From IMG/VR virus record IMGVR_UViG_3300024258_000005: a DNA stretch of 64,000 nucleotides, one strand, 5' to 3'. The DNA comes from a virus. Below, piece after piece: positions 3,101-52,591 of this stretch. The notes beneath the pieces were generated by a model. The model was not told where the DNA came from and did no database searches. It saw only the letters and a program-made list of their open reading frames with translations. Made by a program: the position numbers and the translations under genes. Every line of letters begins with the position of its first letter. The first letter of the stretch is position 1.

Positions 3101-3914
3101 AGAAGAGTTAATTGATATGGGGACATATGATGTACCTGAAGTTGAAAAAGCTGCTAAGATGCGTAGAACATTAGGTATTGGTTTCAGTGATATATTCCAT
3201 TTAATGGCAATCAATAAAGTATTTTATAATACTAGAGAAGGTCGTCAATTTATTGCAAATAGAATTGAATTATGTACATATCATATGACAAGAACTTCTA
3301 TGGAACTTGCGAAAGAGCGTGGAGCATGTTTACTATTTAAAGACACTAAGTACTCTGATGGTCTATTACCAATAGATACTTATAACAAACATGTTGATGA
3401 ACTTATTGGTAAAAATACCGAATTTGATATTGATTGGCCTTGGCTTCGTGAGCAAATTTTGAAATATGGAATGAGACATTCTACATTGACAGCTAATGCT
3501 CCATTTGGAAGTTCTTCAATGGTTTCAAATTCAACTCCAGGGATTGAACCTCCAAGAGGTTTACAAGTTTCTAAAAAAGGTGTTACTAAATTAGTACCTG
3601 ATATTAGAAGATTTGGTAAATATTATACAACTGCATGGAGTGATGATTTTAACAATATTGATTATTTTAAATTTATTGCTGTTGTTCAGAAATTTATGGA
3701 TCAAACATTAAGTGTTAATCAATATCATAATATGATTAAAACTGATGGTAAGAAAAAGAAATCATTATTAATAGAAGAAATTTTAGTTGCTTGGTATTAT
3801 GGTTTAAAAACATTATACTATTCAAATATTAGAAGTACTGATCAAGCTGATGGTGATGATGAAATTGAAGAAGAAGAAGATGATGGTTGCGCAGGCGGCG
3901 GTTGTAAAGTATAG
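171..3914 (+). CDS. nrdA: Ribonucleotide reductase class Ia alpha subunit, intein-containing
   Basis: N-terminal ATP-cone-like start, ETPQEMF, SLPTPVM, SNLCTEI (catalytic N-x-C-x-E), GIGFSD, TANAPFGSSS, LKTLYY and the C-terminal redox pair DDGCAGGGCKV. RBS aagga lies upstream. Confidence 0.97.
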   Translation: MINIIKDDGSKEEYKPEKSQQHLGYAVEGLSRVSISEIEMRASLSIEDGTTSKEIQQALIKSCADHISEDEDEYQIAAARLLNQDIRKDVYKQYTPKSFIEMIDKGCDAGYYDSEYLWKYYTRDEIITYGKLIDYDRDDNFVYSGLKKTKDSYLVKQFGKIQETPQEMFLLINIFAFAKYKGALRDKWVKNGYDILSNFEASLPTPVMIQVRSMFRKYISCFRGNTKIRIANLDFKLIQDIVIGDKVQTIQGNLKEVVAINIKEHTDEFITINSSYGLNDEFTSTDNHPIKSILFDDIKCIRNQTPSNTKPICITSQTKAKHCLKSKNHYKNDCELLNTDWSTISKFVEAKDLSIHDYIAIPFDNKIICDNLFDMKDFINDDKYKLINGYITKEHIKVFNLNRLIKVDADFMYILGWFAAEGCVVNNHLNFSLNINEMDYLIDIKDKIKRVFNIEGKIYDNGDNSVSLQVSHKILANFFNIILNNAKEKREGSVIHEKILYADYESQKYFLKGIFLGDGFLASNYLGLDIVDKRFIDFTNHCLLRNGFISQNSKYINAANTQCYRINIRFGLNAEFIKFVDKRTENFKIIKQLENINNIKSPKNIGFFQENILYSKIINIKKFKEVVEVYDIEVQDDHTFIANDYGVHNCNLIHPGDSNTTLAEASKIIMKLVAAGAGLGIGNTVRGLDADIDNGRLSHTGCLPIYKGYEKLTKAFVQPSRDGSSTVYHPFFHVEIESMMVWGNAKGTEETRIREMDHAITFSALFWERYANGEDITLFYLNDVKDLVNFMGDDEKFKELYEGYEKSVPAERRTTITAESIFDTFVDERHLQSREYTAFLDNIGKQGMYKVPIFISNLCTEITQPIYPVHEQGHKRNIKFNDAASEEKYWDLRTEAYFYPDNDVKRTSFMRQMSELYTFVDADPFAEVDEDKVYDYFTNRGFPNLAEVGVCILGGVNMGHTTDKRLPIVSEYLVRFLEELIDMGTYDVPEVEKAAKMRRTLGIGFSDIFHLMAINKVFYNTREGRQFIANRIELCTYHMTRTSMELAKERGACLLFKDTKYSDGLLPIDTYNKHVDELIGKNTEFDIDWPWLREQILKYGMRHSTLTANAPFGSSSMVSNSTPGIEPPRGLQVSKKGVTKLVPDIRRFGKYYTTAWSDDFNNIDYFKFIAVVQKFMDQTLSVNQYHNMIKTDGKKKKSLLIEEILVAWYYGLKTLYYSNIRSTDQADGDDEIEEEEDDGCAGGGCKV
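831..2117 (+). mobile_element. Intein (429 aa) with LAGLIDADG homing endonuclease in nrdA
   Basis: Block A CFRGNTKI, block B TSTDNHP, LAGLIDADG motifs YILGWFAAEG and FLKGIFLGDG, block F VYDIEVQDDHTF, block G VHN followed by Cys+1. Removing it restores RKYIS-CNLIHPGDS (E. coli RQFSSCVLIECGDS). Confidence 0.95.
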
Positions 3915-3946: not shown

Positions 3947-4528
3947 ATGAAAAAAATTGATGAAAACTTTAATAAAGTATTTGAAGGCATGAGTGATGTA
4001 TTTGATGAAATGTTCACTAAAATTGACAAAGAATTAAATAAAGAAGATAATGATGGTAAAGTACATTTGGATTACAAGAATATTCAGACTCATATCAATA
4101 ATGCTAGTGAAGTTATTAGCGATGAGTTTGATACTATTTTATGTATTACTCGTGGGGGTCTCGTACCTGCTGGATTGCTTGCCTACCAATTAGGCATTAA
4201 AAATATTGTTAATATTAATATTTCTTCATATGAAGATGATAATTCTCAAGGTACAATTGATTTAGAAAAATTATCTAAAAAAGAGATTAAGATTCTAAGT
4301 AAAGCAAAAGGTATTTTAATTGTTGATGATATTATTGATACAGGTGATACTGTTCAAGCTCTTGCTATTTATTTAAATGAATTACAAGTAGCTGGTAAGA
4401 TTGTTTGTAACAATATTGAGATGTTTGCTTTAGTTACAAAACAAGTTGACAAGTGTAGTTATTATGTATATAACATGGAAGGTGATGACCGATGGATTGA
4501 ATTCCCGTGGAGTATTGGAATGTCGTGA
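3947..4528 (+). CDS. Type I phosphoribosyltransferase, xanthine/guanine PRTase (Gpt)-like
   Basis: ITRGGLVPAGLLAYQLG, INISSYEDD, PRPP loop ILIVDDIIDTGDT and C-terminal WIEFPW closely follow Gpt motifs. Confidence 0.88.
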   Translation: MKKIDENFNKVFEGMSDVFDEMFTKIDKELNKEDNDGKVHLDYKNIQTHINNASEVISDEFDTILCITRGGLVPAGLLAYQLGIKNIVNINISSYEDDNSQGTIDLEKLSKKEIKILSKAKGILIVDDIIDTGDTVQALAIYLNELQVAGKIVCNNIEMFALVTKQVDKCSYYVYNMEGDDRWIEFPWSIGMS

Positions 4529-4547
4529 TTAATAAATCTGACATGAC

Positions 4548-5201
4548 ATGACAAAAGAATTTATCATCAATAATTTTATTGATGATAATGGCCAGTTAGA
4601 TAGACAAGCTTTTTTAAAATATTATGATTGTGATTCAACTTCTATTTATAAATTGTTAAAAATATTAAATAATAAAATATTAAATTATGAATATTGGAAC
4701 AATAGAGAATATATAATTAATAATTTTCTTGATAAAAATAACATAATAGATAGAAAAATTATTGAATCTTTTTTTGGATGTGAAAGAACATCGATAGATA
4801 GACAGCTTAAAAAATTAAAAATAGATTATAATTATAAAAGAAAACAATTTAAAAGATCCAATAAAAGTAAATATGAATATAAAATTATTAATATTTTAAA
4901 AAAACTCAACCCAAATATAAAAATAACACATTCAACTTATAATATTATATCTCCATTAGAACTTGATATTTTTCTACCTGAATATAATATAGCTATTGAG
5001 TTTAATGGTCTATATTGGCATAGTTATTCTAAAAATAATAATGTTTCAAAAAGACAAGGAAATTTAGAATTTCATAATGGTGAAATATTAAAAGATGAAA
5101 ATTATATGTGGGAAAATACTATATTACATTTAGGTCAAAAAATTTTAAATGGTAGAATACTGTATAATGCTGGAAAAATAATATATAAAAGGAAAAATTA
5201 A
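4548..5201 (+). pseudogene. Internally deleted Hef-like (PD-(D/E)XK-type) homing endonuclease remnant
   Basis: ISPLELDIFLPEYNIAIEFNGLYWHSY matches the two full copies at 49.3-52.6 kb. It then lacks their whole GARECY...ELIRFCS...RRWS block and ends in GRILYNAGK, similar to their YRSIYDAGN terminus. Confidence 0.6.
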
Positions 5202-22831: not shown

Positions 22832-25192
22832 TTATACTACTTGTATATTTAAATTAATTGAATCATAATCAAAGAAGAAATAAGGAGGAACAAAATTAAC
22901 TATATCAAATAGTTTTAAATCTGCTCCACCTAATTTATTATCCATTGCATTATAAATAATTCTGGCGCTGTTTGTTGTAAACACTTTGGGACTGATAACA
23001 TCGACATTTTTAATCATGTCATATATTTTAACAATTTCTTTTTCAAGTAGTGTCTCATAAAATTCAGTTTCAAACCCTTCAGCTGTTCGAAGAACTTTAT
23101 ATATTGTATCCTTCATATCATATTCAAGTTCTTCAATTGATTCATAATCAGATAAAGAGTATTTATATTTATCGATAATAAGATCGATTACAATAATATT
23201 TCTAGTAGTAAGAATATCACCATTAGTATTCTTATCAATAATATATTCTCTATATTTAGGTTCAATTGCAATCGTGTTATAAAATGATTGTGTTGTTCCT
23301 ACATTAAAACTAATTGTTTTAATATCTTTTTCCACTCGAAAGAAAGTATCTAGTTTAGTAAAGAACTTTTCTATATTAGAAAGTTTAAGATAATTTAATT
23401 CCAGAAAAGGTAAATGTAATACATATCTAGTTTCATCTTGAGTATTTAATATATCAAGTTCAGTGTAGTAAAAGTGATCTTGTTTTTTTACTAGTTGATT
23501 ATATGAACCAACAGAAGTGTAAGTCATTACAAGTAAAGTATCTTGATAAATATCAATTTCAATATCTGATAAATCATCTTCAAATAAACAATATTCATCT
23601 AGAAATCTTTGGTTGACAATTTGTTTAAATTCATTATGAATAGAAAGTTCCATATCAAATTTATTACTTCTAAGTTTATATGTATATAATGTATTGAAAT
23701 TTTTAAGTTCAAGACGAGTTTTTCTTTCAAAATAATCATATGTTATATAAAGACCTACAGAATTCTGTAACTTAGTAAGTCTATCAGTAGAAGTATCTGT
23801 TTTCAATTCTACTTTTATATTTGGTTGTACCATATATGCAGTATAATGATTAAATCTTTTCTTATAATAAAAAGGACTAATTAAATCGATACCTTCATAT
23901 GTTTTAGTTGGCATAAACAATTCTGATTGAAATTCTGATTCTTCTATGTTAAATGTATTTGTTGGCACTATACGTTGATTTGTATCTCTGATAATATTAT
24001 ATATAAATAAATGATTTTGAGAGTTAAAGAATTTTGGATCCACGAATGGGATACCATCATCCATTGTATACATAATTTCAAAATCATTAATTGATGTAAT
24101 TGAATTTCTTGTACTATTCTTTTTAATCATTTCGGTTTTTATATCTTCAATATCTTTAATATCCATACCAAGTTCACCACCACTTAAAGAAAGAACTTTT
24201 AAGTTGGTTTTAGAAGCAGTACTATAACCACCTTCATCCTCAGATGAAACAATAATATCTTCAAGATTGATCTCAGCAGAGTTTACATTACCTCCTGAAC
24301 CTTTAGTAAGCTTCGTTTCAATAATAATTTGATCACCCGCAAATAGCTTGCGACCATTAATACCATCACCAACTGTAAATATAAGTTGATTCTCGGCTAT
24401 CTTCAAATACAAGTTATCATCAAATTGGCTAGCATTAAATTTATTATATTTAATTTGCATTTGAGATAAATCACCATAACCTTTAATGTTATCAGTATCT
24501 AGTAAATATAAATCATCTAATTCAACTTCGGGTTTTTCATTTGCTTCATTTTTAATCCAAGCTTGAATCTCATAAATATCATCTAAACTAGGAATATCTA
24601 AAGAGAATGAAAATGTTTCGCCAATACCATAATCAGGTATGTTAAATTTGTGGAATGATCTTTTATATTGTCTAAGTCCATTATATTCAACCATGTACAT
24701 ATTTAAATCAGCGTTTAACGGATTCTGTACTTTACTTACTTCAAGTACATTAATTTCTGTATCTGAATATCTCTTTGCTGTTACAACTGAGTTATTTACA
24801 AAGATTTTTACATCTTCTTCTAATGTATAATTTAATCCTGAACCATCAACAAAACTCACATTTCTTTTAATATCATAAGTAATGATTTCACTTTCTCTTA
24901 ATCTGTATTCAGGGATAAGAAATGATATCTGCATTGAAGCAGGTGTACCAAAAGTAATGTTATAGTTTAGAATACTTGCGTGGAATAATAATGAACTAAA
25001 TTCTGTTGCTGTTGCAGGATTCATTTCGCGTAGCAGCTTATTATAATATATTGCATTATCATATTTAATGTTAGCAAATATATTAACTAATGTTCCAAGT
25101 GCTCCTGTTTTTAACAAAGCAGGATTACTAACTTTTAATGTATCACGAACTATATTTTCATAGTCTAAAAGTGTATCAGTAATACTTTTCAT
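22832..25192 (-). CDS. Baseplate wedge protein, T4 gp6/baseplate-J-like
   Basis: REMNPATATEFSSLLFHASILNY, IFTVGDGINGRKL, TKGSGGNV and RNSITSINDFE are gp6-type motifs. Confidence 0.8.
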   Translation of the reverse strand: MKSITDTLLDYENIVRDTLKVSNPALLKTGALGTLVNIFANIKYDNAIYYNKLLREMNPATATEFSSLLFHASILNYNITFGTPASMQISFLIPEYRLRESEIITYDIKRNVSFVDGSGLNYTLEEDVKIFVNNSVVTAKRYSDTEINVLEVSKVQNPLNADLNMYMVEYNGLRQYKRSFHKFNIPDYGIGETFSFSLDIPSLDDIYEIQAWIKNEANEKPEVELDDLYLLDTDNIKGYGDLSQMQIKYNKFNASQFDDNLYLKIAENQLIFTVGDGINGRKLFAGDQIIIETKLTKGSGGNVNSAEINLEDIIVSSEDEGGYSTASKTNLKVLSLSGGELGMDIKDIEDIKTEMIKKNSTRNSITSINDFEIMYTMDDGIPFVDPKFFNSQNHLFIYNIIRDTNQRIVPTNTFNIEESEFQSELFMPTKTYEGIDLISPFYYKKRFNHYTAYMVQPNIKVELKTDTSTDRLTKLQNSVGLYITYDYFERKTRLELKNFNTLYTYKLRSNKFDMELSIHNEFKQIVNQRFLDEYCLFEDDLSDIEIDIYQDTLLVMTYTSVGSYNQLVKKQDHFYYTELDILNTQDETRYVLHLPFLELNYLKLSNIEKFFTKLDTFFRVEKDIKTISFNVGTTQSFYNTIAIEPKYREYIIDKNTNGDILTTRNIIVIDLIIDKYKYSLSDYESIEELEYDMKDTIYKVLRTAEGFETEFYETLLEKEIVKIYDMIKNVDVISPKVFTTNSARIIYNAMDNKLGGADLKLFDIVNFVPPYFFFDYDSINLNIQVV

Positions 25193-25263
25193 AAATCTCC
25201 TTTTTTTATTTAATATTTGTTGGCTTGTTTGAAATTAACCTCAAGGAAATCTTAGAAAAGAAA

Positions 25264-25596
25264 TTAATCTTTTCTAAGAGAATCTAGGGCACCACCTGAG
25301 AAGTAAAATCCTAAGATGGCTAATATAATCATACCTAAATTAAAAGCCGCTATAATCGCTATAATCGCTTTATAGTCTACACCTATAGCATTAGCTGATA
25401 ATGCTAATGATATTGCTATAACATATATTAACGAGAAGATTAAAGCTATTGAACGTTGCATTAATTTGAACGCTGTGTACTCGCTAAACATAAAATTAAT
25501 TTGTTTGGTTTTTGTATCATCTGATATAGGAAGAGAGTTGATGAATTCAACTCTATCTGCTATATATTCTTTTGTTCCAAATATTTTTCCTATCAT
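25264..25596 (-). CDS. Holin-like membrane protein (3TM/GTA-type holin family)
   Basis: MIGKIFG... N-terminus, FKLMQRSIALIFSLIYVIA TM segment and C-terminal GMIILAILGFYFSGG, a pattern typical of this holin family. Confidence 0.65.
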   Translation of the reverse strand: MIGKIFGTKEYIADRVEFINSLPISDDTKTKQINFMFSEYTAFKLMQRSIALIFSLIYVIAISLALSANAIGVDYKAIIAIIAAFNLGMIILAILGFYFSGGALDSLRKD

Positions 25597-25608
25597 TTAT
25601 TTTCCTTC

Positions 25609-26775
25609 TTAAAATAATATATCTAATCTGATACAATATCTAAATGATTCATCATCTATTGGTGTAACACTGTTACCACCAGATAATTTAGCATAATCTA
25701 TTTGTTCGTATCTTCCGGTTACACCTAGTTTAATCTTTGGTGTAACATATATACCTGTATACACTTTAAAGGTATTTCCTAAATTACCCCATGAGTAAGC
25801 ATTTATATTTTCTAAATCGGTAGCATAACTTATCCAATGTTTAGAAGCATAAAAATACTCTGCACCGAAATAAGAATCTAATCTAAATATATTAGCATCA
25901 AAATCTTTCTTAGCTCCAACAAGAACACTATATCCAGTTCGTTTACCTTCATCGCTAAAGTTGATACCCGGACCTTCTAATGCTGTGCCAGTTGGTGATA
26001 TTTCTGTACCATCAAAATCTGTAACAGATACCCCGGCTATACCATAATATACCATTCCTGATGTATCTCGATCATCATACTGATAACCAACACCTGCGAA
26101 GTATAAATTTCCTAATGATTCTAATGTTTCTTCATCATATATCTTTTCATATATAATATTCGATACTGAAGCATTAATTCTAAACGTATGTTTATCAATT
26201 ACACTCTTTGTAAATAAATATCCTATATCACTTCCATTTCTAGAGTTTTCATATCTATCTTCTGGTAACTGGTAAATGTCATCTATTCTGGCACCATAAC
26301 CAAATTGTATTTTATGATTTTCATTTATATAATGGGTATAAAATACACCAGTCATATTAATATAATAAAATGTCATAAGAGCATCGCTAAGTTTTAAACC
26401 AGCAGTACTATGTTCACTAAACACACCATTCTTAAAACTAAAATTACCAACGCTGATAATATCATCAGGTGTTATAAATATGTTTAAATCTAATTCACTA
26501 ATTTCAAAATAATTCTCAGCTGGACGTATTTTATTATATGAACGAGAATATATCTCTGATCTACTTGTATAATTAATCGTACTATTAATAGTAACATATT
26601 TATTAAATATGATGTCATTATAAGTATTCAATATTATTCTATGTCCTTCGGCTTCTATATCATTTCCTAGAACTGTTCCACTACTACTGCCATACATAAA
26701 CTCTAGTTTGTTAAAATTTTTAAGTTCTACCGCGTATAAGTTTAAACAGATTACTAATATCATTAAATATTTCAT
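25609..26775 (-). CDS. Outer-membrane beta-barrel (porin-like; DUF3373-like by recall)
   Basis: Signal peptide MKYLMILVICLNLYA, alternating aromatic/hydrophobic beta-strands throughout, FGAEYFYASKHW segment, and a C-terminal BAM beta-signal YCIRLDILF ending in Phe. Confidence 0.75.
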   Translation of the reverse strand: MKYLMILVICLNLYAVELKNFNKLEFMYGSSSGTVLGNDIEAEGHRIILNTYNDIIFNKYVTINSTINYTSRSEIYSRSYNKIRPAENYFEISELDLNIFITPDDIISVGNFSFKNGVFSEHSTAGLKLSDALMTFYYINMTGVFYTHYINENHKIQFGYGARIDDIYQLPEDRYENSRNGSDIGYLFTKSVIDKHTFRINASVSNIIYEKIYDEETLESLGNLYFAGVGYQYDDRDTSGMVYYGIAGVSVTDFDGTEISPTGTALEGPGINFSDEGKRTGYSVLVGAKKDFDANIFRLDSYFGAEYFYASKHWISYATDLENINAYSWGNLGNTFKVYTGIYVTPKIKLGVTGRYEQIDYAKLSGGNSVTPIDDESFRYCIRLDILF

Positions 26776-27041
26776 AATTTATCTCCTATCTCACGTGAGT
26801 GCTTATCAATATCAAACCCTTTTGAAATCAAGCATTGCCCTAAATAAAATTTATCAAAGTCACTTACTTTGCCGTCTGTATACTCATAAAGTTCATTCTT
26901 TTTAACTACCCTTTTCCATCCAGAGATACTTTTTATCTCGGGCGAAATTAGATACTTGTTAAAATATATTTGACAGGATTCAGCATACACATGAGAAAAT
27001 GATAGCATTATAATAATGCATATCTTTTTTATATTTTTCAT
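26772..27041 (-). CDS. Small secreted (periplasmic) protein with two Cys
   Basis: Signal peptide MKNIKKICIIIMLSFSHVYA with an AxA-like cleavage site; the mature part has two Cys (ESCQ, GQCL). ATGA overlap with the porin gene. Confidence 0.6.
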   Translation of the reverse strand: MKNIKKICIIIMLSFSHVYAESCQIYFNKYLISPEIKSISGWKRVVKKNELYEYTDGKVSDFDKFYLGQCLISKGFDIDKHSREIGDKL

Positions 27042-28394
27042 TTACACTCCTATATATATTGCAGGGAAGATTATTTCGAATACTGTTCCGTTTCCGGATG
27101 TTTCACGAAGTTTTAAATCTCCTGCCTTTTCATTTAGTAACTCTTTATTTAAATAAAGACCTACACCTCTAACATTAACATCAGTTGGTTTTTTAAATAT
27201 GTTTGCTAATTTATGTAAAGAGTCTAATATGTATCCTTTAGATTCGCGAATTACAAACTCACCTGATGAATCTTTACTTGAATAGTATGGTTTAAATATG
27301 TCTTCATATTTCTCTTTACTAAGAAGTAGACCAGTTGTTCTATCTCTTAATCCTACACCATTATCTATAATATATAAATGTAAATCTTTAGTTACATTAT
27401 TAAATTTAACTTGTGTGACAATTCTTGATGAGTTTGCTTCTAAAGAATTTCTAAAATGATTAGATACAATATTTAAAAGGTCACCATTTTTTAATAGTCC
27501 ATCTAATTTGTATTTTCCTAAATTGGGATCTATTTTGATATTAAAATTTGATTTTTTATATATGTTCATTGAGTTCACACTGTACTCAATTATGTTTTTT
27601 AATGTTTTATTTCCCTTACTGTATTTCAAGTTTTTAAAATTACTCATACGCTGGAGAACATTATCTATTTGTTCTATACTAGAATATAATTGACCGAAGT
27701 CGAAGAAGAATTTTTCATTACACTTACAATCATAAATGGGAGATAATGTGCTTTGCATTTCAATTTCTAACTTTCTAATATTACCTTGAATAATAGCAAC
27801 AGGTGTATTAAGTTCATGATGAATATTCTCCGTTAGGATTTGCATATTCTTTTCTCTTAATGTATTACTTGTACTCATCATATCTAAAATTTTTCGTTTT
27901 CTTAATTTATATTCTAAACCGAAGAAGACAAAGGTGTATATTAAAAATAATATAATATTTATATTTATATACCCCATAAAAATATTGTCTATTAAAAGTT
28001 GTGTATTTGGAACTATATAAATTTGATAATCAGGAAATTCCATATATAAATTTAAATTATTAGTTAATGATAGTTCTTTACCACTAAAAGATAACTCTGG
28101 TTTTAAATAGGATTCTCTTTGTAATATATTATTTTCTTGTAGAGTATAAGTTGAATTATTGACAAATCCTATTTCAGAACAAGTTGTAATAATACATAAA
28201 TGTTGTAAATCAATTTCATCAAACTCTTCAATAATACTTATAATAGTAGAATTTATTCTATCCTTATATACTACATTTATTGTATAAAAATTTTCAAATA
28301 GTACAGCATTCATAATAAATATATTTAATAAAAGATATAAACTATAACGTGTACACGTTTTAATATTGTCATGGGTATACATTATATCTCCCAT
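27042..28394 (-). CDS. Membrane sensor histidine kinase
   Basis: Two TM segments flank a roughly 100-aa extracytoplasmic region. H box NIHHELNTP, N box NHFRNSLEA, G1 IIDNGVGL, F box DIFKPYYSSK, G2 GVGLYLNK and terminal GTVFEIIFP are all present. Confidence 0.93.
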   Translation of the reverse strand: MGDIMYTHDNIKTCTRYSLYLLLNIFIMNAVLFENFYTINVVYKDRINSTIISIIEEFDEIDLQHLCIITTCSEIGFVNNSTYTLQENNILQRESYLKPELSFSGKELSLTNNLNLYMEFPDYQIYIVPNTQLLIDNIFMGYININIILFLIYTFVFFGLEYKLRKRKILDMMSTSNTLREKNMQILTENIHHELNTPVAIIQGNIRKLEIEMQSTLSPIYDCKCNEKFFFDFGQLYSSIEQIDNVLQRMSNFKNLKYSKGNKTLKNIIEYSVNSMNIYKKSNFNIKIDPNLGKYKLDGLLKNGDLLNIVSNHFRNSLEANSSRIVTQVKFNNVTKDLHLYIIDNGVGLRDRTTGLLLSKEKYEDIFKPYYSSKDSSGEFVIRESKGYILDSLHKLANIFKKPTDVNVRGVGLYLNKELLNEKAGDLKLRETSGNGTVFEIIFPAIYIGV

Positions 28395-29053
28395 TTTTGC
28401 TGAGTGTAATACTCTTCTATTAAATCTCCATACGCTGAAACTCTATTACCATTTTTATTAATAATATGTTTATACATTTCAATCTCTTCACCTTTGTAAA
28501 CTAACTTTTTAGTTTCATCTATTGGTGTTTGGAAAAACTCTTCAAATTTTTGAATGAATTCAAAAATTTCAGGATTATATTTATTTAATGTGTGCCCTGT
28601 TATAAATTTAATTAAGCACTTTGGATTATGTTGTTTTAACATGATGGCTACATCGATGCCATCATATTCAATATTATTAATTACACCACCAAGTGTGATA
28701 TCTAGAATTCCAACATCTACTGTTTTATCAGGATCTTTAAGATATTTTTCTACTGTAAATCCAGCATAGTTGCCAGTTGCCATCATAATATTAAATTCTT
28801 TATATACATCACAATATTGAACTCTACTAAGCTCGTCTTTAATTAATTCAGCCATTCCAGTAAAATCATCCATTATAAGAATATTTGGATTTCCTTCTAT
28901 TTCTGGTTGACAGAAAAACATTTCAGGAACTTTGATACTATATTCTGCAGGTTTTAATTCTGCAGGTGTAATATATTCATCATTGAATTTCATTTTCTTT
29001 TTACGTGATTTAAAAGGGTTAATTGTTTGTATTATAGTAAGAATCTTATTCAT
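28382..29053 (-). CDS. Response regulator, receiver domain only (CheY-like)
   Basis: NILIMDDF (acidic pocket), DVGILDITL (phospho-Asp), DGIDVA, IKFITGH (conserved Thr) and a candidate Lys in IINKN. No HTH or other output domain is visible. Confidence 0.88.
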   Translation of the reverse strand: MNKILTIIQTINPFKSRKKKMKFNDEYITPAELKPAEYSIKVPEMFFCQPEIEGNPNILIMDDFTGMAELIKDELSRVQYCDVYKEFNIMMATGNYAGFTVEKYLKDPDKTVDVGILDITLGGVINNIEYDGIDVAIMLKQHNPKCLIKFITGHTLNKYNPEIFEFIQKFEEFFQTPIDETKKLVYKGEEIEMYKHIINKNGNRVSAYGDLIEEYYTQQKWEI

Positions 29054-29517
29054 TTCGTTTCCTTTATAACATCAGCTGTCTCATTTATAACTCTGATTAA
29101 ACTTTCATTAATTGCTCTGTATGCTCCAGGATCAATTTCATAAATAGTAACAAGTACCATTACAATTACTACCCAAGTAAATAAAACTCGTTTAGCATTT
29201 TCCCATGTTAACATTTCATATAATCTTTGTGTCCATGGTAAGTACTTTTTTCTTTCATTAATCATTTTATTAACAGTTGTTGATTTAATTGTTAATGCTT
29301 TATCTAAAAGAATAAGCATTTGTTTTTTATCTGATTTATTTGTCATATTAAATTCATTATATATTAGTACAAATAATTCATATGTCTCAGGGGATACTTT
29401 TTTTACTTCAAAAAATTTGCCCATAAGATCTTGTTTTTCATCATCAGAATTTTTATAGTTCAGTATATCAATTCTTAATTCTTCTAATTTATTACTTAAT
29501 GTAATATAATCTTCCAT
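29050..29517 (-). CDS. Membrane-anchored hypothetical protein (single C-proximal TM)
   Basis: Hydrophobic VLFTWVVIVMVLVTIY segment, RBS aaggagag, and an ATGA overlap with the response regulator. Confidence 0.7.
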   Translation of the reverse strand: MEDYITLSNKLEELRIDILNYKNSDDEKQDLMGKFFEVKKVSPETYELFVLIYNEFNMTNKSDKKQMLILLDKALTIKSTTVNKMINERKKYLPWTQRLYEMLTWENAKRVLFTWVVIVMVLVTIYEIDPGAYRAINESLIRVINETADVIKETK

Positions 29518-29541
29518 ACTCTCTCCTTTTTATTCTCGTGT

Positions 29542-30468
29542 TTAATTGTTGTCTAAACTATGTGCTTTTGACATATCTTCTATAAATTCATCAAATAATG
29601 GACCTTTACGGTCAGCATCACTATCATAAAATTTATAAACCATATCATTTGATTTATAACTTTGATTTATTGTTGATATGGCATTTTTGCCTCTATCACC
29701 AATTATTTGTTTAAATGGTAAATTGATAGGAGATACTCCCATAATTTTAACTAAGCCTCTAATATTGGTTGTGAATGGTGCAAATATAACTACCCAAACA
29801 GCATTGAAATATGGAACATCTATAAAGTATTTTTTATCAACATTTTCTGGAATGTCTGGTTTAATATAACCTTTCTTTAAAGCATCTATATATTTAAACC
29901 AACTTTCATGGTATCTAAAAATGTGGTTATTATAGTCGTCAATATAATTTATACTAAAATCACCAGCAAAGTGCAACTTACTTGCGTAATTAAGATTTCT
30001 TGATTTACCTGATATACTTTCATATTCAATATTTAATTGAGGAATATCAATATCAGTTGCAAGTTGACCAAAATCCTTTGCTACTTTATTAAAGTGACCT
30101 TTATTAAATGTACTTGTATCATTATTAGTAATATAATCTTTTTCATATGAACTAATAACCTCTGTCTCTGTCTCTGCTGTCGTAGATTTTAAAGTCTGAG
30201 CTGTATTAACCCATGAACCATGAACCATTTGAATATAATAATAACCATTAATATGAGGAGCGAAGCTACTATAATCAATAGTTACTTTCTCATGCATAAT
30301 TTGAATAAGTTTATCATATTTAGGATTAGTAGCATTATGTGCGGTATTAAATTTCTTACTAATTTGTTCTTTATATGTGGTGGAATCTTCTATTCCACTA
30401 ATATCAGATGTTATATCCGATTGAGTTACGGGTGTTGCTGTAGTACTATTAAATTCCGTTAATGGCAT
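29542..30468 (-). CDS. Tail tube-like paralogue (tube initiator/hub, gp48/gp54-like)
   Basis: PHINGYYY...DIDIPQL...GDFSINYIDD..NHIFRYHESW parallels the tube gene at 38.7 kb (PYIKGYFY...EFSIQYKDF...IFRIHRQW). Confidence 0.6.
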   Translation of the reverse strand: MPLTEFNSTTATPVTQSDITSDISGIEDSTTYKEQISKKFNTAHNATNPKYDKLIQIMHEKVTIDYSSFAPHINGYYYIQMVHGSWVNTAQTLKSTTAETETEVISSYEKDYITNNDTSTFNKGHFNKVAKDFGQLATDIDIPQLNIEYESISGKSRNLNYASKLHFAGDFSINYIDDYNNHIFRYHESWFKYIDALKKGYIKPDIPENVDKKYFIDVPYFNAVWVVIFAPFTTNIRGLVKIMGVSPINLPFKQIIGDRGKNAISTINQSYKSNDMVYKFYDSDADRKGPLFDEFIEDMSKAHSLDNN

Positions 30469-30496
30469 TTATTTTTCCTTTTAAATTATTAATTTT

Positions 30497-30556
30497 GAAG
30501 ACTTTATAAATTGAAAAAATTTGAATTTATAAAGTCTTCGAGTCTAAGACTCGAAG
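30497..30556 (-). terminator. Two overlapping hairpins after the 392-aa gene
   Basis: gaagactttataaatt (30497-30512) pairs with aatttataaagtcttc (30524-30539); cttcgagtct-a-agactcgaag (30536-30556) overlaps it. Confidence 0.55.
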
Positions 30557-31722
30557 TTAGCATCTTTACAAAATGCTTGTTTTGCTCGTAGTACTATTAA
30601 TAATAATAGAACCTTTCTAAGTTTTAATCGACTGCTATTGCTACCAGATTTCATAATACCTTTATACATTGTATTTAAAAGAGTATCGACATATTTCTTA
30701 AGCTTAGCAATTTGAACATTATTACCCTTAGCCGAAGTTATCTTAGACACTGTCTGTAATATATGCATACCACATATTTTTGTATCATCAATTTTGATAA
30801 TATTAAACATCAATTCATAAATATTTTTAAGATCATCTTCTGCATCGTCAGAGTTTAAAAACACTTCTGAATCAGTTAGGAACTTATTTGAAATTGAATA
30901 AGGATCTGCTTTAAGATACCTTCTATCGCTTTCGGATATTTTTTGAGGACGATGCATTAGATTCTTTTGTAGTTTGCTAACGGTACTTGCTACCTTAGAA
31001 CTTTCAATTGAATCAACTTCTGTACCCTTAACATCAGATGTTGCTCCGATAACAGATTTATTACCATCAGCATGTGCTTGATAATAATGTTTTTGTATTC
31101 CCATGAATACTTGTTCCATTCTTCCCCATGCTTGCATCAATATAACAACTAAACCTAAAGTAGGATGAGCTGGATCTTTTTGAACATATGGAAAGTATTT
31201 TTCATCTAGAGTTGGTGCAAAGTATTGTGTAATTGCTACAAATGGATTGGGATATTTTTTAAAAGTATGTGACTTACGAAATATACTTTGAATTAAAAAT
31301 TGTGCAATCTCATCTTGACAGCCATTAGGCATGAACTTATATTGTCTACCATTAAACACTTTAACATATATAAGAGCAATCGAAATTGTTCTTAATAAAT
31401 CATCATCTGCTCTTACCCCAATGTAATATACAAGGCTTAAAGTTTGATAATATAAAGAACTATACATTCTTGAATCAGGATGAAATCCAATTTGAGTAAA
31501 ACTACTAAGCATTTGTCTATCGCTTATGCCAAATATCTTTAATAATTTCTTATCAAGTGTATTAGGTGTTCTAAGTGCATTACAAAAACTAGAATGACCC
31601 ATAGAGTCATTGTTTAGTTTTCGAATGATAGCAATTAGTAGATTTTTAATCTCATCATATAGTACTTTATTTTTAAGTATTTTATCTGCAACGAACTCTA
31701 TTTCTTGTGGCATTTTATGCAT
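30544..31722 (-). CDS. Hypothetical protein (392 aa)
   Basis: Long ORF with an RBS; no family recognised. Confidence 0.65.
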   Translation of the reverse strand: MHKMPQEIEFVADKILKNKVLYDEIKNLLIAIIRKLNNDSMGHSSFCNALRTPNTLDKKLLKIFGISDRQMLSSFTQIGFHPDSRMYSSLYYQTLSLVYYIGVRADDDLLRTISIALIYVKVFNGRQYKFMPNGCQDEIAQFLIQSIFRKSHTFKKYPNPFVAITQYFAPTLDEKYFPYVQKDPAHPTLGLVVILMQAWGRMEQVFMGIQKHYYQAHADGNKSVIGATSDVKGTEVDSIESSKVASTVSKLQKNLMHRPQKISESDRRYLKADPYSISNKFLTDSEVFLNSDDAEDDLKNIYELMFNIIKIDDTKICGMHILQTVSKITSAKGNNVQIAKLKKYVDTLLNTMYKGIMKSGSNSSRLKLRKVLLLLIVLRAKQAFCKDANFES

Positions 31723-32513: not shown

Positions 32514-35369
32514 TTATTTATTTGGGACACAACGAGTGCCTTCTAAGTGATAACCTTGGTTACATTTGATATTACCATGCTGATCTGTACGTCCGCCTGG
32601 GAATGTTAAGTTCGGCTTATGTTGATTACCTTTACCTTTACCTTTACCTTTACCTTTACCTTTACTATGGTAATTGTCTTTATTGTAAGTTCTTGATGCT
32701 GCTTCAAGTTTTCTACTAGGCGCATCATATTCTTTTTCAACTTCATAATCACTAGTATTAAAACTATTAGATACCTTAGTATCTTGATTCTTCTTATTGA
32801 TATCATCAAATTGTTGGTTATAAGATTTTGTTTTTGCTTTATGCTTTTCAATTAATTCACGATGATTAGTTCTTGCTAGTGCATGTTTAGCAGGTTCTTT
32901 ATGCTTATCATGAACATCCATCTGCTTTTGAGCTTTAGCAATTTCAGCAACTATTTTATCTAAATCATCTGAACCACCAGCACCATATTGATTATTAAGT
33001 GCTTCCATTCTTTGTTCTTTACTAACTTTAAACATTTGATCAGATTTCATTAATAACTTATTAGCAGAAAGTTGACATAAGCCTTTCATTTCTGTAAATG
33101 ATATTTTACTAAAGATGCTACTACCAGTAAGAGATAAATAATCAGGTTGTGCTAATATAACATCAGATTTACCAATTATAAATACAGGATTCTCACTTAG
33201 TCCTAATCTCTTTAAAATATATTTCATGATATTTAAATCATTACCTAAAACAGAAGGTGGATAAGCCAATAATCCAGCTAAGTATTTTTGAGTATCAACA
33301 TAATTTAACATTTCATAAAGAGCTGTTAATGTATCTTGATTAAATATATATGTTTTGAAGTTATTTGGTTTCATAACAGTTTTTCTAATAACAACGTTCT
33401 TTTCAGTTCGCATGTTTGCATACTGCTGAGCTTGAATCATAGAGTTATCACCGTATTCTCTACCTATACGCTTAAACATTAAGTATACTTGAGTTTTGAT
33501 GATATTTTCAATATATGTTTCAATATTCTCTTTGTTATTATCTAACCATTGAGCAGCTTGTTGTTCTTTATCATTTTTATGTCTATTCATCATATCAACA
33601 GGTACAGAATTATTAATCATAATTGCTTGTTCCATTACAGAACTATGCATTGATTCATATATTGCAAATTTTAATTGATCAACATTCCAAACAATACCTT
33701 TATCTTGTAACGAACCAAGCATTTTAAATAAGCTGTCTTCACTAAAGTCTTTTCTATCACCTATAGTATCAAATATAATTTGTAAACTTTTCTTTTCATA
33801 AAGAGATACTTCTATACCATGTAGGATAGCAGTGAGTTCGCTTTGAATACCGGCAATATTATAAACTAGTGTAGATTTTCTATTTTGAGCAGCTGCTGCT
33901 GCTATTTCAGCTTCTCTGCTTTCTTGATTGATAAAAATTCTATCTGTTTTAGCATCTTTCAATATTTGATGTTGAGTATTTCTACGAGCAGTAAGTGCTT
34001 GTATTTTCATACTCGCTTCACTGTCTGTTATAGAAGCATCATTCATTAAATTATCGATTTGATTATCCAATGTATGAATTTCTAATGTAGCTTGTTCTAT
34101 ATCTTCAGCATTTGATTGACTAATACCTTTAGTATCAGATTTCGTATTATTAAACATTCCAGTCTGATGAGAAAATTTATCAAATGCTAGATTTAACTTA
34201 TTAACCATATTTAAAAGAAATGCTTCAAAATAATTATTACGTAAACTGTTAATCATTTTATCATAATTAACACTAACATCAATATCTTCACCATCTTTAT
34301 TTTTAAGACGAACTGTATTGTCTTTAATATTATCATCTATATCAACTAGGATACCATCTGTACCTTTATTACCAGCAGTATTAAAATGTATTAAAGAATC
34401 AACCATACTAAGGATCTTATTATAGTCTTGTGTCTTTTGTGCTAAGTATTGACGTTCAATACTAGAACTAACATTTACTTCATTTGGTAATCCTAAATGA
34501 CTATGAGAGTTGCCACTGTTTGTAACTCTAGTTCTAATGTTACTTGAAGTGCCTCTAGTATCATCAAAGAAGTCTGCAATATCTAAATGATTAATTTCAT
34601 TTAGTAAAAAGTTTACATCTTTTATTTGACCAGATTTTCTATCACCACCAAATAACTTATAGAATCTATTTCCAATAGAATCTTTAAGAGCAGAATTTTG
34701 ACGAGTCATACTAATTAAACCTTTATATGACTTATCTCCTGATGATTTTTTATATCCTGCTATCTTGATAAGTTTTACCATAGCAGAAATTGGATCAGTA
34801 TTGTTGTTTTTAGAAAATTCAATAAATTTAGCAACATCACTTCTTATTCTATAAGAATCATCTGCTATACCAACCTCAGATAAAGGAGTTGTTGGATATA
34901 ACATATCTTTTAAGAATAGAAAAGTTAATGAAAGTGCATCATCATATTTAATTTCTTGTAGTATTTCTTTTTGAATTAAATCATTAGTTAAAAGTAAAAA
35001 ATCATAATCATGTGAGCCATTTTTATTTGGATGTTCTATATAAATAGGATAGTTTACTTTATCTTTATAAAAGACATTACCTTCAATAATTTTATTAAAA
35101 TTCTGAAGAGATTTAAATGCTCTTTTCATTGTATTTCTTTTATTTCCTACATCAGTATTAGCGGTGGTAGGGGTACTAACAGGGTTGTTAAAATACTTAG
35201 CAATAACATCAGGTGTAATGTATTGTTGAATATCGTTTGAAGTTTTTTGCATTTGAGTATTCATAGTAATAAGATCCGCATAAGATTTAATACTATAATT
35301 ATCAATACATTGTTTTACATAATCTTCTACTTCCACTACGGGAAATGAACCAAAACGTATTTTCTTCAT
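32514..35369 (-). CDS. Large hypothetical (951 aa), probably an internal head protein; KG repeat and Cys motif at the C-terminus
   Basis: Long ORF with coiled-coil segments, ending in a KG repeat and CNQGYHLEGTRCVP. Confidence 0.6.
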   Translation of the reverse strand: MKKIRFGSFPVVEVEDYVKQCIDNYSIKSYADLITMNTQMQKTSNDIQQYITPDVIAKYFNNPVSTPTTANTDVGNKRNTMKRAFKSLQNFNKIIEGNVFYKDKVNYPIYIEHPNKNGSHDYDFLLLTNDLIQKEILQEIKYDDALSLTFLFLKDMLYPTTPLSEVGIADDSYRIRSDVAKFIEFSKNNNTDPISAMVKLIKIAGYKKSSGDKSYKGLISMTRQNSALKDSIGNRFYKLFGGDRKSGQIKDVNFLLNEINHLDIADFFDDTRGTSSNIRTRVTNSGNSHSHLGLPNEVNVSSSIERQYLAQKTQDYNKILSMVDSLIHFNTAGNKGTDGILVDIDDNIKDNTVRLKNKDGEDIDVSVNYDKMINSLRNNYFEAFLLNMVNKLNLAFDKFSHQTGMFNNTKSDTKGISQSNAEDIEQATLEIHTLDNQIDNLMNDASITDSEASMKIQALTARRNTQHQILKDAKTDRIFINQESREAEIAAAAAQNRKSTLVYNIAGIQSELTAILHGIEVSLYEKKSLQIIFDTIGDRKDFSEDSLFKMLGSLQDKGIVWNVDQLKFAIYESMHSSVMEQAIMINNSVPVDMMNRHKNDKEQQAAQWLDNNKENIETYIENIIKTQVYLMFKRIGREYGDNSMIQAQQYANMRTEKNVVIRKTVMKPNNFKTYIFNQDTLTALYEMLNYVDTQKYLAGLLAYPPSVLGNDLNIMKYILKRLGLSENPVFIIGKSDVILAQPDYLSLTGSSIFSKISFTEMKGLCQLSANKLLMKSDQMFKVSKEQRMEALNNQYGAGGSDDLDKIVAEIAKAQKQMDVHDKHKEPAKHALARTNHRELIEKHKAKTKSYNQQFDDINKKNQDTKVSNSFNTSDYEVEKEYDAPSRKLEAASRTYNKDNYHSKGKGKGKGKGKGNQHKPNLTFPGGRTDQHGNIKCNQGYHLEGTRCVPNK
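32628..32663 (-). repeat. Hexanucleotide microsatellite (aaaggt)n encoding a Lys-Gly run
   Basis: accttt repeated about six times on the + strand. Confidence 0.85.
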
Positions 35370-41753: not shown

Positions 41754-42548
41754 TCATGTTATTATTAATAGTTCTTTTAACAATTTTAATTGCTGATTAG
41801 TATAAAAATTTTGCGGATCTTTATTATTTTTTTTAGCATTACACTGTCTACATAATACAACAGCATTTGTTCTAGTTAATCCAAAACCTTTAGATAAAGG
41901 TTTATGGTGATCTATTTCTAAACCATCTTTCGTGTCACAATTAAAACATTTATGATCAAATAAATTAAAAGTATAATTAATATCAAATCTATTATAATTT
42001 TCATTAATATTTAATTTTAACTCTCGTCTATTATTATCTAATATTTTTTGAGTCAGTTTTCCTTTATTTGATTGTTTATACTTTAAACGAATTGTTTTAT
42101 AATTTTTAGGATCATTTTTTACATAATTATAATGTTTCTGTTTATATTTATCTGAATTAATTGCATAATCTATTTTATAATTTTTAGAATTATTTTTTTG
42201 AATTTTATCTTTATTTTTTATATAATATTCTTTGTTTTTTTCTTGAATTAATTTTTTATTTTTTAAATTTGATTTTTTAGATTGATTCAGAATCTTTTTT
42301 CGGTATTCAGAATCTTCGTTATACCTAATTTTTCTTTGTGTTATATATTTTTTACTATTTTTGTAATTATATAATTTTACACAATATTTGCACTTAGATT
42401 TAAGACCCAAATGTAATTTATCAGTAAAACCAAAATTACAGATAAGATGGTTAGTATCACAATGTTTACATTTTTTAAATATAGTATTTAACCACTTATC
42501 AGTGGTACTTCTAGACAAGTATATACCACTCAATACGTAATGAATCAT
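41754..42548 (-). mobile_element. HNH homing endonuclease
   Basis: C-terminal KCFNCD...IDHHKPLSKG...TNAVVLCRQCNAKK, an N-terminal CKHC...CKYC zinc finger and a Lys-rich linker. Confidence 0.9.
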
Positions 42549-49304: not shown

Positions 49305-50819
49305 TTAAGATAAATAATTTTTTATAAAACTCATGTTACCTGAGTCATATATAACTCGATATTTATTTTCTATCATATTTTGAATCTCTGTTTTTTCAGA
49401 ATCAAAAGTATCCAAAAGGGCTTCTAATTTATGCTTTTGAAATTTTATTCTTGAATATAATTCATTATTTTTAAAATAAAAATAATTAGGATTTGATATT
49501 GTATTATGTTTAAAATTTAATGTTTTATACAAATTACCATTACTCCATCTCCTATTAGCATATGAAATTAATATGTCTGGTTTATAATGTATCTCGAAGT
49601 ATTTTAATAATTTACTTGCAGCTCCTGGTACCTGAAGATTTAATTTTGAACAAAATCTAATTAATTCAAAACTAATATTTTTATCATATCTACTTTTACC
49701 AAAAGTCATAACAGATACCAATTCATCTGTTGCGTTACTAAATAATCCTAATTGTATAGAACTTTGACATTTACCTTGTAAATGGTTTTCATCTAAAAAA
49801 TTATTAGTTAAAGAATTATCAATCTCTTTAATATAACATTCTCTTGCTCCGATTTTAAATTCAACTTTTCCTAAAGCATTTCTTATTTGACTTTTCCAAA
49901 TTTCTTTTTTCTTTTCCCATTCATTTTCAAATATATGAAACAATTGATAACCTTTTGATTCACAAGCTACTGTTTTTTTAATATGTCTGTTTTTATTATA
50001 ATTTAAATTATTTTGTTTATCATTAACGTTATTTAAACCATAACTATGCCAATATAAACCGTTAAATTCAATTGCAACCTTATAATCAGGTATTAATATA
50101 TCAAGCTCTAGAGGAGATATAAGAGTCCTATCACTTTGCTTAATATCTAATCCTAAAGATTCTACAAAATCCGCAACCTCTTTTTCAGGACTTGATATTA
50201 AACCATTAGTGTATACAATATTAAGATATTGCATTCTTTTGTTAATATTAGATTTAGAAATATTAAAATGCAAAACCATTTTATCGATATCAAGTATATT
50301 ATTTGTAATAAAATTTTTTATAATATATTGTTTATTGTAATCTTTTATATTTGTAAAATGTTTATATGTACTTGAGACAGCCCCATATTTTAATATACAT
50401 GTTTCTTTTACTTTTTTTTGAACTACTGGAACTTGCATATGATTATCAACCCCATATTTCTTTCGACATGTATTTTTAGTTTTCTTATTTTTAGTTATCT
50501 TTTTTTCTTCTGTCCAACTTTTTGATATTTGTTTTCTTAAAACTGAATCTTTATTTCTGCATGTGATTGAACAATATTGTCTAAATAAATTCTTTTCATT
50601 ATCAAATTTTGTATGATTTTTACAATCAATAGAACGACATTCTATATGTGATTTATTCATAACATATAAGTAAATTCTAGCTTTATCTGAATATACATCA
50701 TATGTTGTTTCTAATATTAGATCCCATATAGGAAGATCTAATATTTTTTTATTATTAGAACGTAATTTTAATGGGTCTTTCGATTTTATATATGGTGCTA
50801 TTGTTGTTATATCATTCAA
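49305..50819 (-). mobile_element. Hef-like homing endonuclease (504 aa)
   Basis: ISPLELDILIPDYKVAIEFNGLYWHS, LFHIFENEW, GARECY, ELIRFCS, ISYANRRWS; variable Cys-containing N-terminus. Confidence 0.8.
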
Positions 50820-50953: not shown

Positions 50954-52591
50954 TTAATAACTTTTGATAAAACTTAAATTTCCAGCGTCATATATAGATC
51001 TATACCCGTCTTCGATCATATTCTGCATTTCTGTTTTTAATGGATCAAAAACTTCCAATTGTTTTTCTAATTTATGTTTCTGGAATTTTACACGTGAATA
51101 TAATATATCATTATTTTTAAAATAAAAATAATTGGGGTTAGATATTGTATTAACTTTAAAATTTAAAGTCTTATATAAATGACCAGTACTCCACCGTCTA
51201 TTTGCATAACTAATTAAACCATTAGGTTTATAATTTATTTCAAAATGTTTTAATAATTTACTTGCAGCTCCTGGTACTTGTAGATTTAATTTTGAACAAA
51301 ATCTAATTAATTCGAAATCAATATTCTTATTGAATCTACTTTTCCCAAAAGTCATAACAGAAACCAATTCATCCGTTACTTTACTAAACAATCCTAATCT
51401 AATAGAGCTTTGACATTTACCTTGTAAATGATTAATATCCAAAAAATTATTAGTTAAAGAATTATCAATCTCTTTGATGTAACATTCTCTTGCACCTAAA
51501 CGATATTTACATTTTCCTAAAGCATTTCTTATTTGACTTTTCCAAATATTTTTCTTATTATCCCATTCATTTTCAAATATATGAAACAATTGAAAATTTT
51601 TATTTTCACATGCTTCTGTTTTTTTAACATGTCTATTTTTATTATATTTAAGATCTCCTTGATTATAATTAGTGTTATTTAAACCATAACTATGCCAATA
51701 TAAACCGTTAAACTCAATAGCAATATTATGATCAGGTATTATTATATCAAGCTCTAGAGGAGATATAAGAGTCCTATCACTCTGTTTAATATCAACATCT
51801 AAACTTTTAATAAAATCAGCAACTTCTTGTTCTGCTCTTGATATACCATTTTTAGATTTAAAATCTATGTTATTTAATTTCAAAAAATTATATGCTGTTA
51901 TTTTATTAATATTAAAATATTCACAAAACTTTAGAAGATTAATAGTCTCATCTGGTAAAATAAAATGTTTTTTTATATATGCTTTATTGTAATTGTTATA
52001 ATTTGTAATATTTAACTGTTGATGATGTCGGTCTTTATAAACATGTGGAACTTTATTATTTCTATGTAAATTTTTTATTTGATTTTGATTAGTTACTCCA
52101 TACTTATTAAATATTGTTTTTTGTAGCTTCTGTTGTCGTATACTGTGTTTATCATCGTGAACACAATCACAAAAAGTATTAAAAAAATTAGTGCTCTTAT
52201 TAAAGGTTTTCGTATTAAAACAATTTGAAGATTCACAAATTAATTCTTGTTCTGATAAATCATAAACTAAGATAAACATTCGAACAAGTATACTTCCTTT
52301 AAAAAATTTCGTATCTTCTAATATTTTGTCATAAATGATATCATCTTGTAATTTTTTTAGATTTATAAGTTGTCCATCTTTTCGTATATATTCAGTTAAA
52401 TTATATTTTTCAATTAAAACTAAATTTCTTTTAATCTTTAGTTTTCTTAATTCAATTTTAATAGAAATTAATTCTTCTTTATTTTTTTCAATCTCTATTA
52501 AAATTGAAGAATTTTTCTGTTTTTTGTCTTGCAATTTCAATAATTGAATTTTTCTTTTAATCTCTATATATTTTTTATATAATAATAACAT
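50954..52591 (-). mobile_element. Hef-like homing endonuclease (545 aa), tandem paralogue
   Basis: Same C-terminal motifs as the 504-aa copy, with identical DNA stretches (e.g. tcaagctctagaggagatataagagtcctatcact in both). Confidence 0.8.

Follow-up and report, generated by a model that had tools for sequence, protein, structure and literature searches.

Our study reports on a cluster of six genes on the minus strand of a viral sequence, IMG/VR record IMGVR_UViG_3300024258_000005, of which a stretch of 64,000 nt, here called the window, was analysed. The cluster occupies positions 25264-29517 and comprises, from its 5' end, the genes for a 155-residue tail-anchored transmembrane (TM) protein (29050-29517), a 223-residue receiver (28382-29053), a 450-residue sensor histidine kinase (27042-28394), an 89-residue small secreted protein (26772-27041), a 388-residue outer-membrane barrel or porin (25609-26775) and a 110-residue holin-like protein (25264-25596). 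By following these genes through related viral genomes we find that the first three recur as a unit with the features of a putative phage two-component signalling operon. The replicon itself, a contig of about 260 kb with a guanine-plus-cytosine content of about 28%, is a phage, as seen from its tail sheath, major head protein, prohead protease and intein-bearing ribonucleotide reductase (RNR).

The six open reading frames are co-oriented and tightly coupled. Read directly from the sequence, stop and start codons overlap as ATGA both between the TM protein and receiver genes (29050-29053) and between the small secreted protein and porin genes (26772-26775). The receiver and kinase genes overlap by 13 nt, which becomes a 1-nt TAATG overlap if the second Met starts the kinase, as it does in the 446-residue database copy P0001. 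The TAA stop codon of the kinase abuts the ATG of the 89-residue gene, and the 12-nt spacer between the porin and the 110-residue gene holds a GAAGGA ribosome-binding site. A terminator-like hairpin on the same strand (25250-25279; 12-bp stem, 6-nt loop) lies over the stop codon of the last gene and is followed by a 71-nt intergenic region; its fold energy is -17.4 kcal/mol (z = -3.1), and it is the sole terminator-like site in 24800-30700, a region in which about 1.1 would be expected by chance. A scan for sigma-70 promoters gave fewer hits than shuffled sequence, and searches of the window for Rfam families and tRNAs returned none.

An earlier note on this DNA had proposed six co-oriented, coupled genes at this position, and both its coordinates and all of the junctions are confirmed. 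The cellular compartments it assigned also hold, given the signal peptides on the barrel and the 89-residue protein and the TM segments in the kinase and in the 155- and 110-residue proteins, and its gene identities (kinase, output-less receiver, secreted protein, porin and two membrane proteins) are upheld. Its description of the flanks fares less well: the upstream tube paralogue has a weak basis in a sub-threshold Phage_TTP_15 match and a PHROG virion-protein match, and the supposed baseplate wedge, the 786-residue product of the gene that follows the 110-residue gene, matches no family and is without sequence support.

The kinase consists of a first TM segment, a periplasmic domain of about 100 residues with conserved D62 and C67, a second TM segment, a DHp domain bearing H193 and a catalytic ATPase domain. 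Its HATPase_c match of 30.0 bits is above the Pfam cut-off of 26.4, and its profile aligns to HK853 (4jas) with an E-value of 1.6e-7 and the phospho-accepting His in register. An alignment of seven divergent homologues (A2) shows no variation in the H, N, G1, F and G2 boxes, including the H-box HHELNTP around H193, N316, E319 and A320 of the N box, D344, G346 and G348 of the DNGxG motif (G1), F367, and R409, G410 and G412 of the RGxGL motif (G2). The boxes recur across a census of 23 distinct kinase loci, in which every open reading frame of the fetched contexts was scored with profiles of the six genes; by a strict regular expression the H-box is present in 19 of the 23 kinases. With every catalytic box kept, the kinase is predicted from its sequence to be catalytically intact, and this pattern of conservation points clearly to purifying selection on the catalytic residues.

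Kinases of the porin-bearing clade carry a Cys pair in the inter-helix loop of the DHp domain (CxC in the window, CxxC or CxxxC in relatives) and, separating the F box from the G2 box, an insert of about 35 residues. These two features are missing from the more distant kinases L007 and L009, and they could constitute a cytoplasmic redox or metal input.

The receiver has a variable N-terminal tail (residues 1-55) followed by a REC fold into which a beta-hairpin is inserted at 181-194. Its putative active-site pocket is formed by D62 and D63, the phospho-acceptor D118, T152 and K200. Across an alignment of 94 sequences D63 and D118 never vary, while conservation reaches at least 90% at D62, T120 and K200; T152 sits in a TG(H/N) motif in most loci. 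An AlphaFold 2 (AF2) model of high confidence (pLDDT 91.8, pTM 0.82) shows the REC fold with the added beta-hairpin and contains no second or output domain, and no recognisable additional domain was found in the long members of the family. A Foldseek search with this model returned 144 PDB matches at E<=0.001, with TMt values up to 0.76, and the top matches listed are almost all REC domains; by sequence, the receiver profile finds its best PDB matches in CheY and Spo0F. The family is large, with 215 representative clusters in an exhaustive HMMER search and more than 200 clusters at 50% identity. Fold and active site thus identify the protein, at the level of sequence and model, as a divergent REC family.

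Upstream of the receiver, the 155-residue protein is predicted to place a helical bundle (residues 1-100) in the cytoplasm, followed by one TM segment at about 111-129 and an external tail of about 25 residues; its AF2 model is all helical (pLDDT 78). It matches no Pfam, PHROG or Atlas family. We considered a histidine phosphotransfer (Hpt) domain and rejected it, there being no His in residues 1-100 and no conserved His in the family; Hpt domains do match the bundle-like fold, among many generic bundles, at Z 7.4-8.6.

The arrangement of these three genes is strikingly constant. The kinase has 95 detectable homologues, many of them on contigs of 100-295 kb. Of the 22 census loci with upstream DNA, 21 have the receiver immediately before the kinase, and a tail-anchored protein, either homologous or of the same architecture, precedes the receiver at 20 of 21. 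Census kinases span 27-62% identity, and the order of the cassette is unchanged even where kinases are 27-30% identical. Pairwise identities of five of the genes correlate with one another (r = 0.61-0.87), kinase with receiver at r = 0.87. The small secreted protein is found at fewer loci (12/23), with the porin after it at nine of the 23. Complete genomes in IMG/VR of 222,650 bp (with terminal repeats), 193.7 kb and 126 kb each carry one copy of the module. Since neither of the complete genomes G002 and G003, both of which have the trio, encodes a barrel anywhere, we conclude that the TM protein, receiver and kinase form an autonomous core, to which the secreted protein and porin are optional additions.

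The flanks of the module vary, and all of them are phage-like: in the window and its closest relative, L001, it sits in a structural module, and elsewhere its neighbours include prohead protease, the RNA polymerase beta subunit, an actin-like ALP_N protein, RNR, divDNAB and an S77 protease. Searches of cultured phages with DNA and protein found no relative of the kinase or the cassette. The earlier note had looked to bacterial chromosomes as the place where a captured host block would betray itself. A pattern scan for the kinase across the genomes of 185,579 bacterial and archaeal species returned just two short contigs of metagenome-assembled genomes (MAGs), of 2 kb and 5.8 kb, the longer of which carries the trio, and this outcome favours a phage system over a captured host block. 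The two contigs (L016, labelled Ca. Gracilibacteria, and L017, labelled Cloacimonadota) have phage-like content and are probably phage fragments binned into MAGs, with no reliable host assignment. The block is thus phage-restricted and old, not a recent capture from a host.

Some neighbours recur in otherwise different arrangements. An actin-like gene of the ALP_N/ParM type is found no more than about 1 kb from the kinase in L005 (8385-9290), L009 (9910-10860) and L029 (9710-10633); in L005 this gene and one for a Q/P-rich protein of 236 residues stand where the TM protein and receiver would otherwise be. The product of the gene after the cassette begins MILEINK(K/R).L(L/V)(L/V)E in both L003 (13379-14182) and L019 (10293-10781).

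Where it is present, the gene for the 89-residue protein always stands directly downstream of the kinase. Its product has a signal peptide ending in VYA, a mature part of about 69 residues with an invariant GWxR core and, in the clade of the window, two Cys; it matched no known family, and no family of binding proteins. The barrel scores 39.4 bits against DUF3373 (PF11853; cut-off 26.1), the family classified as 1.B.62 in TCDB (PMC4827864). It is made with a signal peptide and ends in Phe, and the porins of all nine loci likewise have a signal peptide and end in F or Y, in an alignment that is highly variable across loci. A DUF3373 cluster matches its Atlas model with a TM-score of 0.80, porins, including Porin_O_P and carbohydrate porins, are its feature neighbours, and clusters of similar size come mostly from Campylobacterota. 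The secreted GWxR protein and the porin are an old accessory extension of the sub-clade that includes the window. The periplasmic domain of the kinase is kept in most loci, with or without the small secreted protein; the length of this loop does not track with the presence of the small protein, which gives no support to a dependency of the sensor upon it.

The last gene of the cluster is a different matter. Its 110-residue product has two TM segments (50-68 and 77-95) and matches phrog_9646 (E 2.7e-11), whose function is annotated as unknown; no holin family of Pfam or NCBIfam matched. Its only relatives in cultured phages are found in Roseobacter phages of two lineages. In CRP-831 and CRP-143 these homologues lie directly upstream of M15 peptidase genes, overlapping them or 4 nt apart, and the label holin-like is reasonable because this is the classic position of a holin upstream of an M15 endolysin. 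The gene is probably co-transcribed with the operon in the window. It accompanies the module at two of the 23 loci, the window and L001, and five related phage records, of which three are complete and module-bearing, contain no detectable homologue. The earlier note had ended the system in a holin; the holin-like character of the gene survives our analysis, and its role as a component does not. The gene is a lineage-specific neighbour outside the conserved module, and this corrects the initial picture.

Taken together, these data show that a membrane partner is inherited along with a kinase whose catalytic boxes are intact and a receiver that keeps its phospho-acceptor pocket and has no output domain. 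Our preferred reading, which we hold with slightly better than even confidence, is that of a phage-specific two-component operon, inherited vertically among uncultured large or jumbo phages, which conducts envelope signalling from the kinase through the receiver to the membrane partner. We propose that during infection the kinase would read a periplasmic or envelope cue through its Cys-bearing periplasmic domain and autophosphorylate on H193, from which the phosphoryl group would pass to D118 of the receiver. The phosphorylated receiver, having no output domain, would then act through protein contact. Its likeliest target may be the cytoplasmic bundle of the tail-anchored protein, which we favour because it is almost universally co-conserved with the receiver and translationally coupled to it; this contact could switch a membrane-associated step of the infection. 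An optional input branch would be provided by the porin and secreted protein, which would sit in the outer membrane and periplasm of the host and admit or present the cue, and the holin-like gene would be a neighbour gained in the lineage of the window and not needed by the system. As a speculative extension, possible and clearly less secure, large lytic phages may run this virus-owned, autonomous envelope-sensing phosphorelay as a means of timing a late decision (lysis, its delay or a response to superinfection) by outside conditions, with the cue admitted in one clade by the phage's own porin and co-factor and the receiver switching the tail-anchored protein.

Several observations weigh against the preferred reading. 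The receiver scores 21.2 bits against Response_reg, under the Pfam cut-off of 30.2, and the kinase 19.3 bits against HisKA, under that of 26.9. The fold matches of the 155-residue protein are generic helical bundles (Z 7-9.6), its family has almost no invariant residues, and synteny is the whole basis for naming it as the candidate output partner of the receiver. Locus L005 encodes a kinase, small protein and porin with no adjacent receiver or TM protein, and the kinase may thus have other substrates. Distant relatives in bacteria can escape a genome scan that works by pattern. Finally, the contact made by the receiver and the phosphotransfer that precedes it are predicted steps.

The same observations can be read in other ways. 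The proteins might hijack the signalling of the host, the kinase phosphorylating host regulators or the receiver serving as a phosphate sink or decoy for host kinases, and so reprogram envelope or stress responses. Stand-alone receivers are established as phosphate sinks in chemotaxis systems, and both the receiver's want of an output domain and the solitary kinase of L005 would fit; however, the adjacency of kinase and receiver at nearly every locus and their correlated divergence are the signature of a cognate, insulated pair, and the co-conserved TM protein would be left unexplained, so that we regard this account as unlikely. The lysis-timing phosphorelay put forward in the earlier note, a functional counterpart of lysis inhibition in T4 in which the envelope or superinfection would be sensed and the receiver would delay or trigger lysis through the adjacent holin, draws on the position of the 110-residue homologues, on the gene's own ribosome-binding site 12 nt after the porin, on the sole terminator-like hairpin directly behind it and on the location of the cassette inside a late structural module in the window. 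Against it stand the rarity of the gene beside the module and the lack of a detectable homologue in the related records described above, the unrelated genomic contexts of the module elsewhere, and the finding of no endolysin among those open reading frames of the window that were scanned. We consider it quite improbable, and as the general function of the system it is not supported, since the conserved unit is the TM protein, receiver and kinase, and the porin, the small secreted protein and the holin-like gene are dispensable. A lysis-inhibition-like phosphorelay would at most be a lineage-specific use, and the system might control a different holin.

The porin also invites the view that it and the secreted protein are the effectors, an auxiliary route of solute uptake in the long infection of a jumbo phage that the two-component part merely tunes. 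Its family and its Atlas neighbours would suit such a role, and the pho-regulon genes of cyanophages are a precedent for nutrient-acquisition genes in phages. We give this view little credence, because at least half of the loci, and two complete genomes that bear the trio, do without the porin pair, the receiver would be unable to regulate transcription directly, and the small protein resembles no family of binding proteins. That the block is a recently captured host operon, a passive moron without a role in the phage, is hardly credible: DUF3373 is a bacterial porin family with similar-sized clusters mostly in Campylobacterota, but no bacterial chromosome with the kinase family emerged from the scan of species genomes, the order of the genes is conserved across phages whose kinases have diverged widely, and their catalytic residues appear to be held by purifying selection.

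Among known systems the phage operon comes closest to classical two-component systems with single-domain receivers. Like CheA-CheY, Spo0F, DivK and CpdR, it combines a HisKA/HATPase_c kinase and a REC domain with a DD...D...T...K pocket, and its output would be made by contact and not by DNA binding; unlike them, its kinase and receiver are divergent families of lytic-type large phages, the receiver carries a tail at its N-terminus and an inserted beta-hairpin, and an orphan tail-anchored protein stands upstream. On fold and active site, in sequence and in model, the two proteins are recognisable as divergent, virus-only families of two-component systems. LiaFSR and the small-protein modulators SafA and MzrA belong to three-component systems with a membrane accessory protein. 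The phage operon resembles them in having a third membrane protein in the same operon, and differs in that no homology is known and the bulk of the phage accessory protein is cytoplasmic, which suggests a target or docking site for the receiver and not a periplasmic modulator of the kinase.

Viruses are known to carry sensory proteins, as the agr genes of phiCDHM1 (including the AgrC kinase), VqmA of VP882, arbitrium and the kinases of giant algal viruses illustrate, and BFVD holds scattered viral REC and kinase proteins, among them 'CheY-like receiver' entries from uncultured Caudovirales and kinases of phaeovirus and klosneuvirus. In contrast to the phage operon, these are single borrowed parts or receptors for peptides and quorum signals, with no virus-restricted three-gene operon and no porin. 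The earlier note had said that arbitrium, VqmA and the phiCDHM1 agr genes are not known to have such an architecture; our comparison came to the same outcome, and a literature search that included the two main surveys of jumbo and huge phages found no description of a conserved phage operon of kinase, receiver and partner, and none joined to a porin. Porins of lambdoid prophages, Lc of PA-2 and NmpC of DLP12, belong to the OmpC family and lie near lysis genes in temperate phages. They share with the window a phage outer-membrane porin gene adjoining a holin-type gene; unlike them, the porin of the window is a DUF3373 protein, paired with a GWxR protein in a two-component operon, where those have no known link to a kinase. 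With T4 lysis inhibition, effected by the RI antiholin and the T holin, the operon shares the idea of an envelope signal that modulates the timing of lysis; its proteins are not homologous to RI, RIII or T, it would work through phosphotransfer, and its link to a holin is confined to two loci.

Known sensing by phages is mostly the work of peptide or quorum receptors in temperate phages, or relies on the regulators of the host. The operon described here is a complete module of kinase, receiver and partner confined to viruses, provided in one clade with its own outer-membrane porin, and, if active, it would mean that large phages possess a transmembrane signalling channel of their own.

Elsewhere in the window, a search among cultured phages found no relative of its capsid protein. 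A 951-residue protein (32514-35369) without a family match ends in a (GK)6 repeat and a short Cys-containing tail, and may be a tape-measure or internal virion protein. The RNR large-subunit gene (171-3914) is split by an intein that carries a homing endonuclease domain of the LAGLIDADG type; beside it, at 3947-5201, lie a gene with a phosphoribosyltransferase domain and one with a weak PvuRts1I-like match at its N-terminus. Three further genes of homing-endonuclease type lie beside core structural genes: those at 50954-52591, 49305-50819 and 41754-42548, with matches to phrog_3339 (E 1e-113), to DUF7487 with a Vsr-like domain, and to HNH. Two of the three adjoin the major head protein gene and one adjoins the tail sheath gene.

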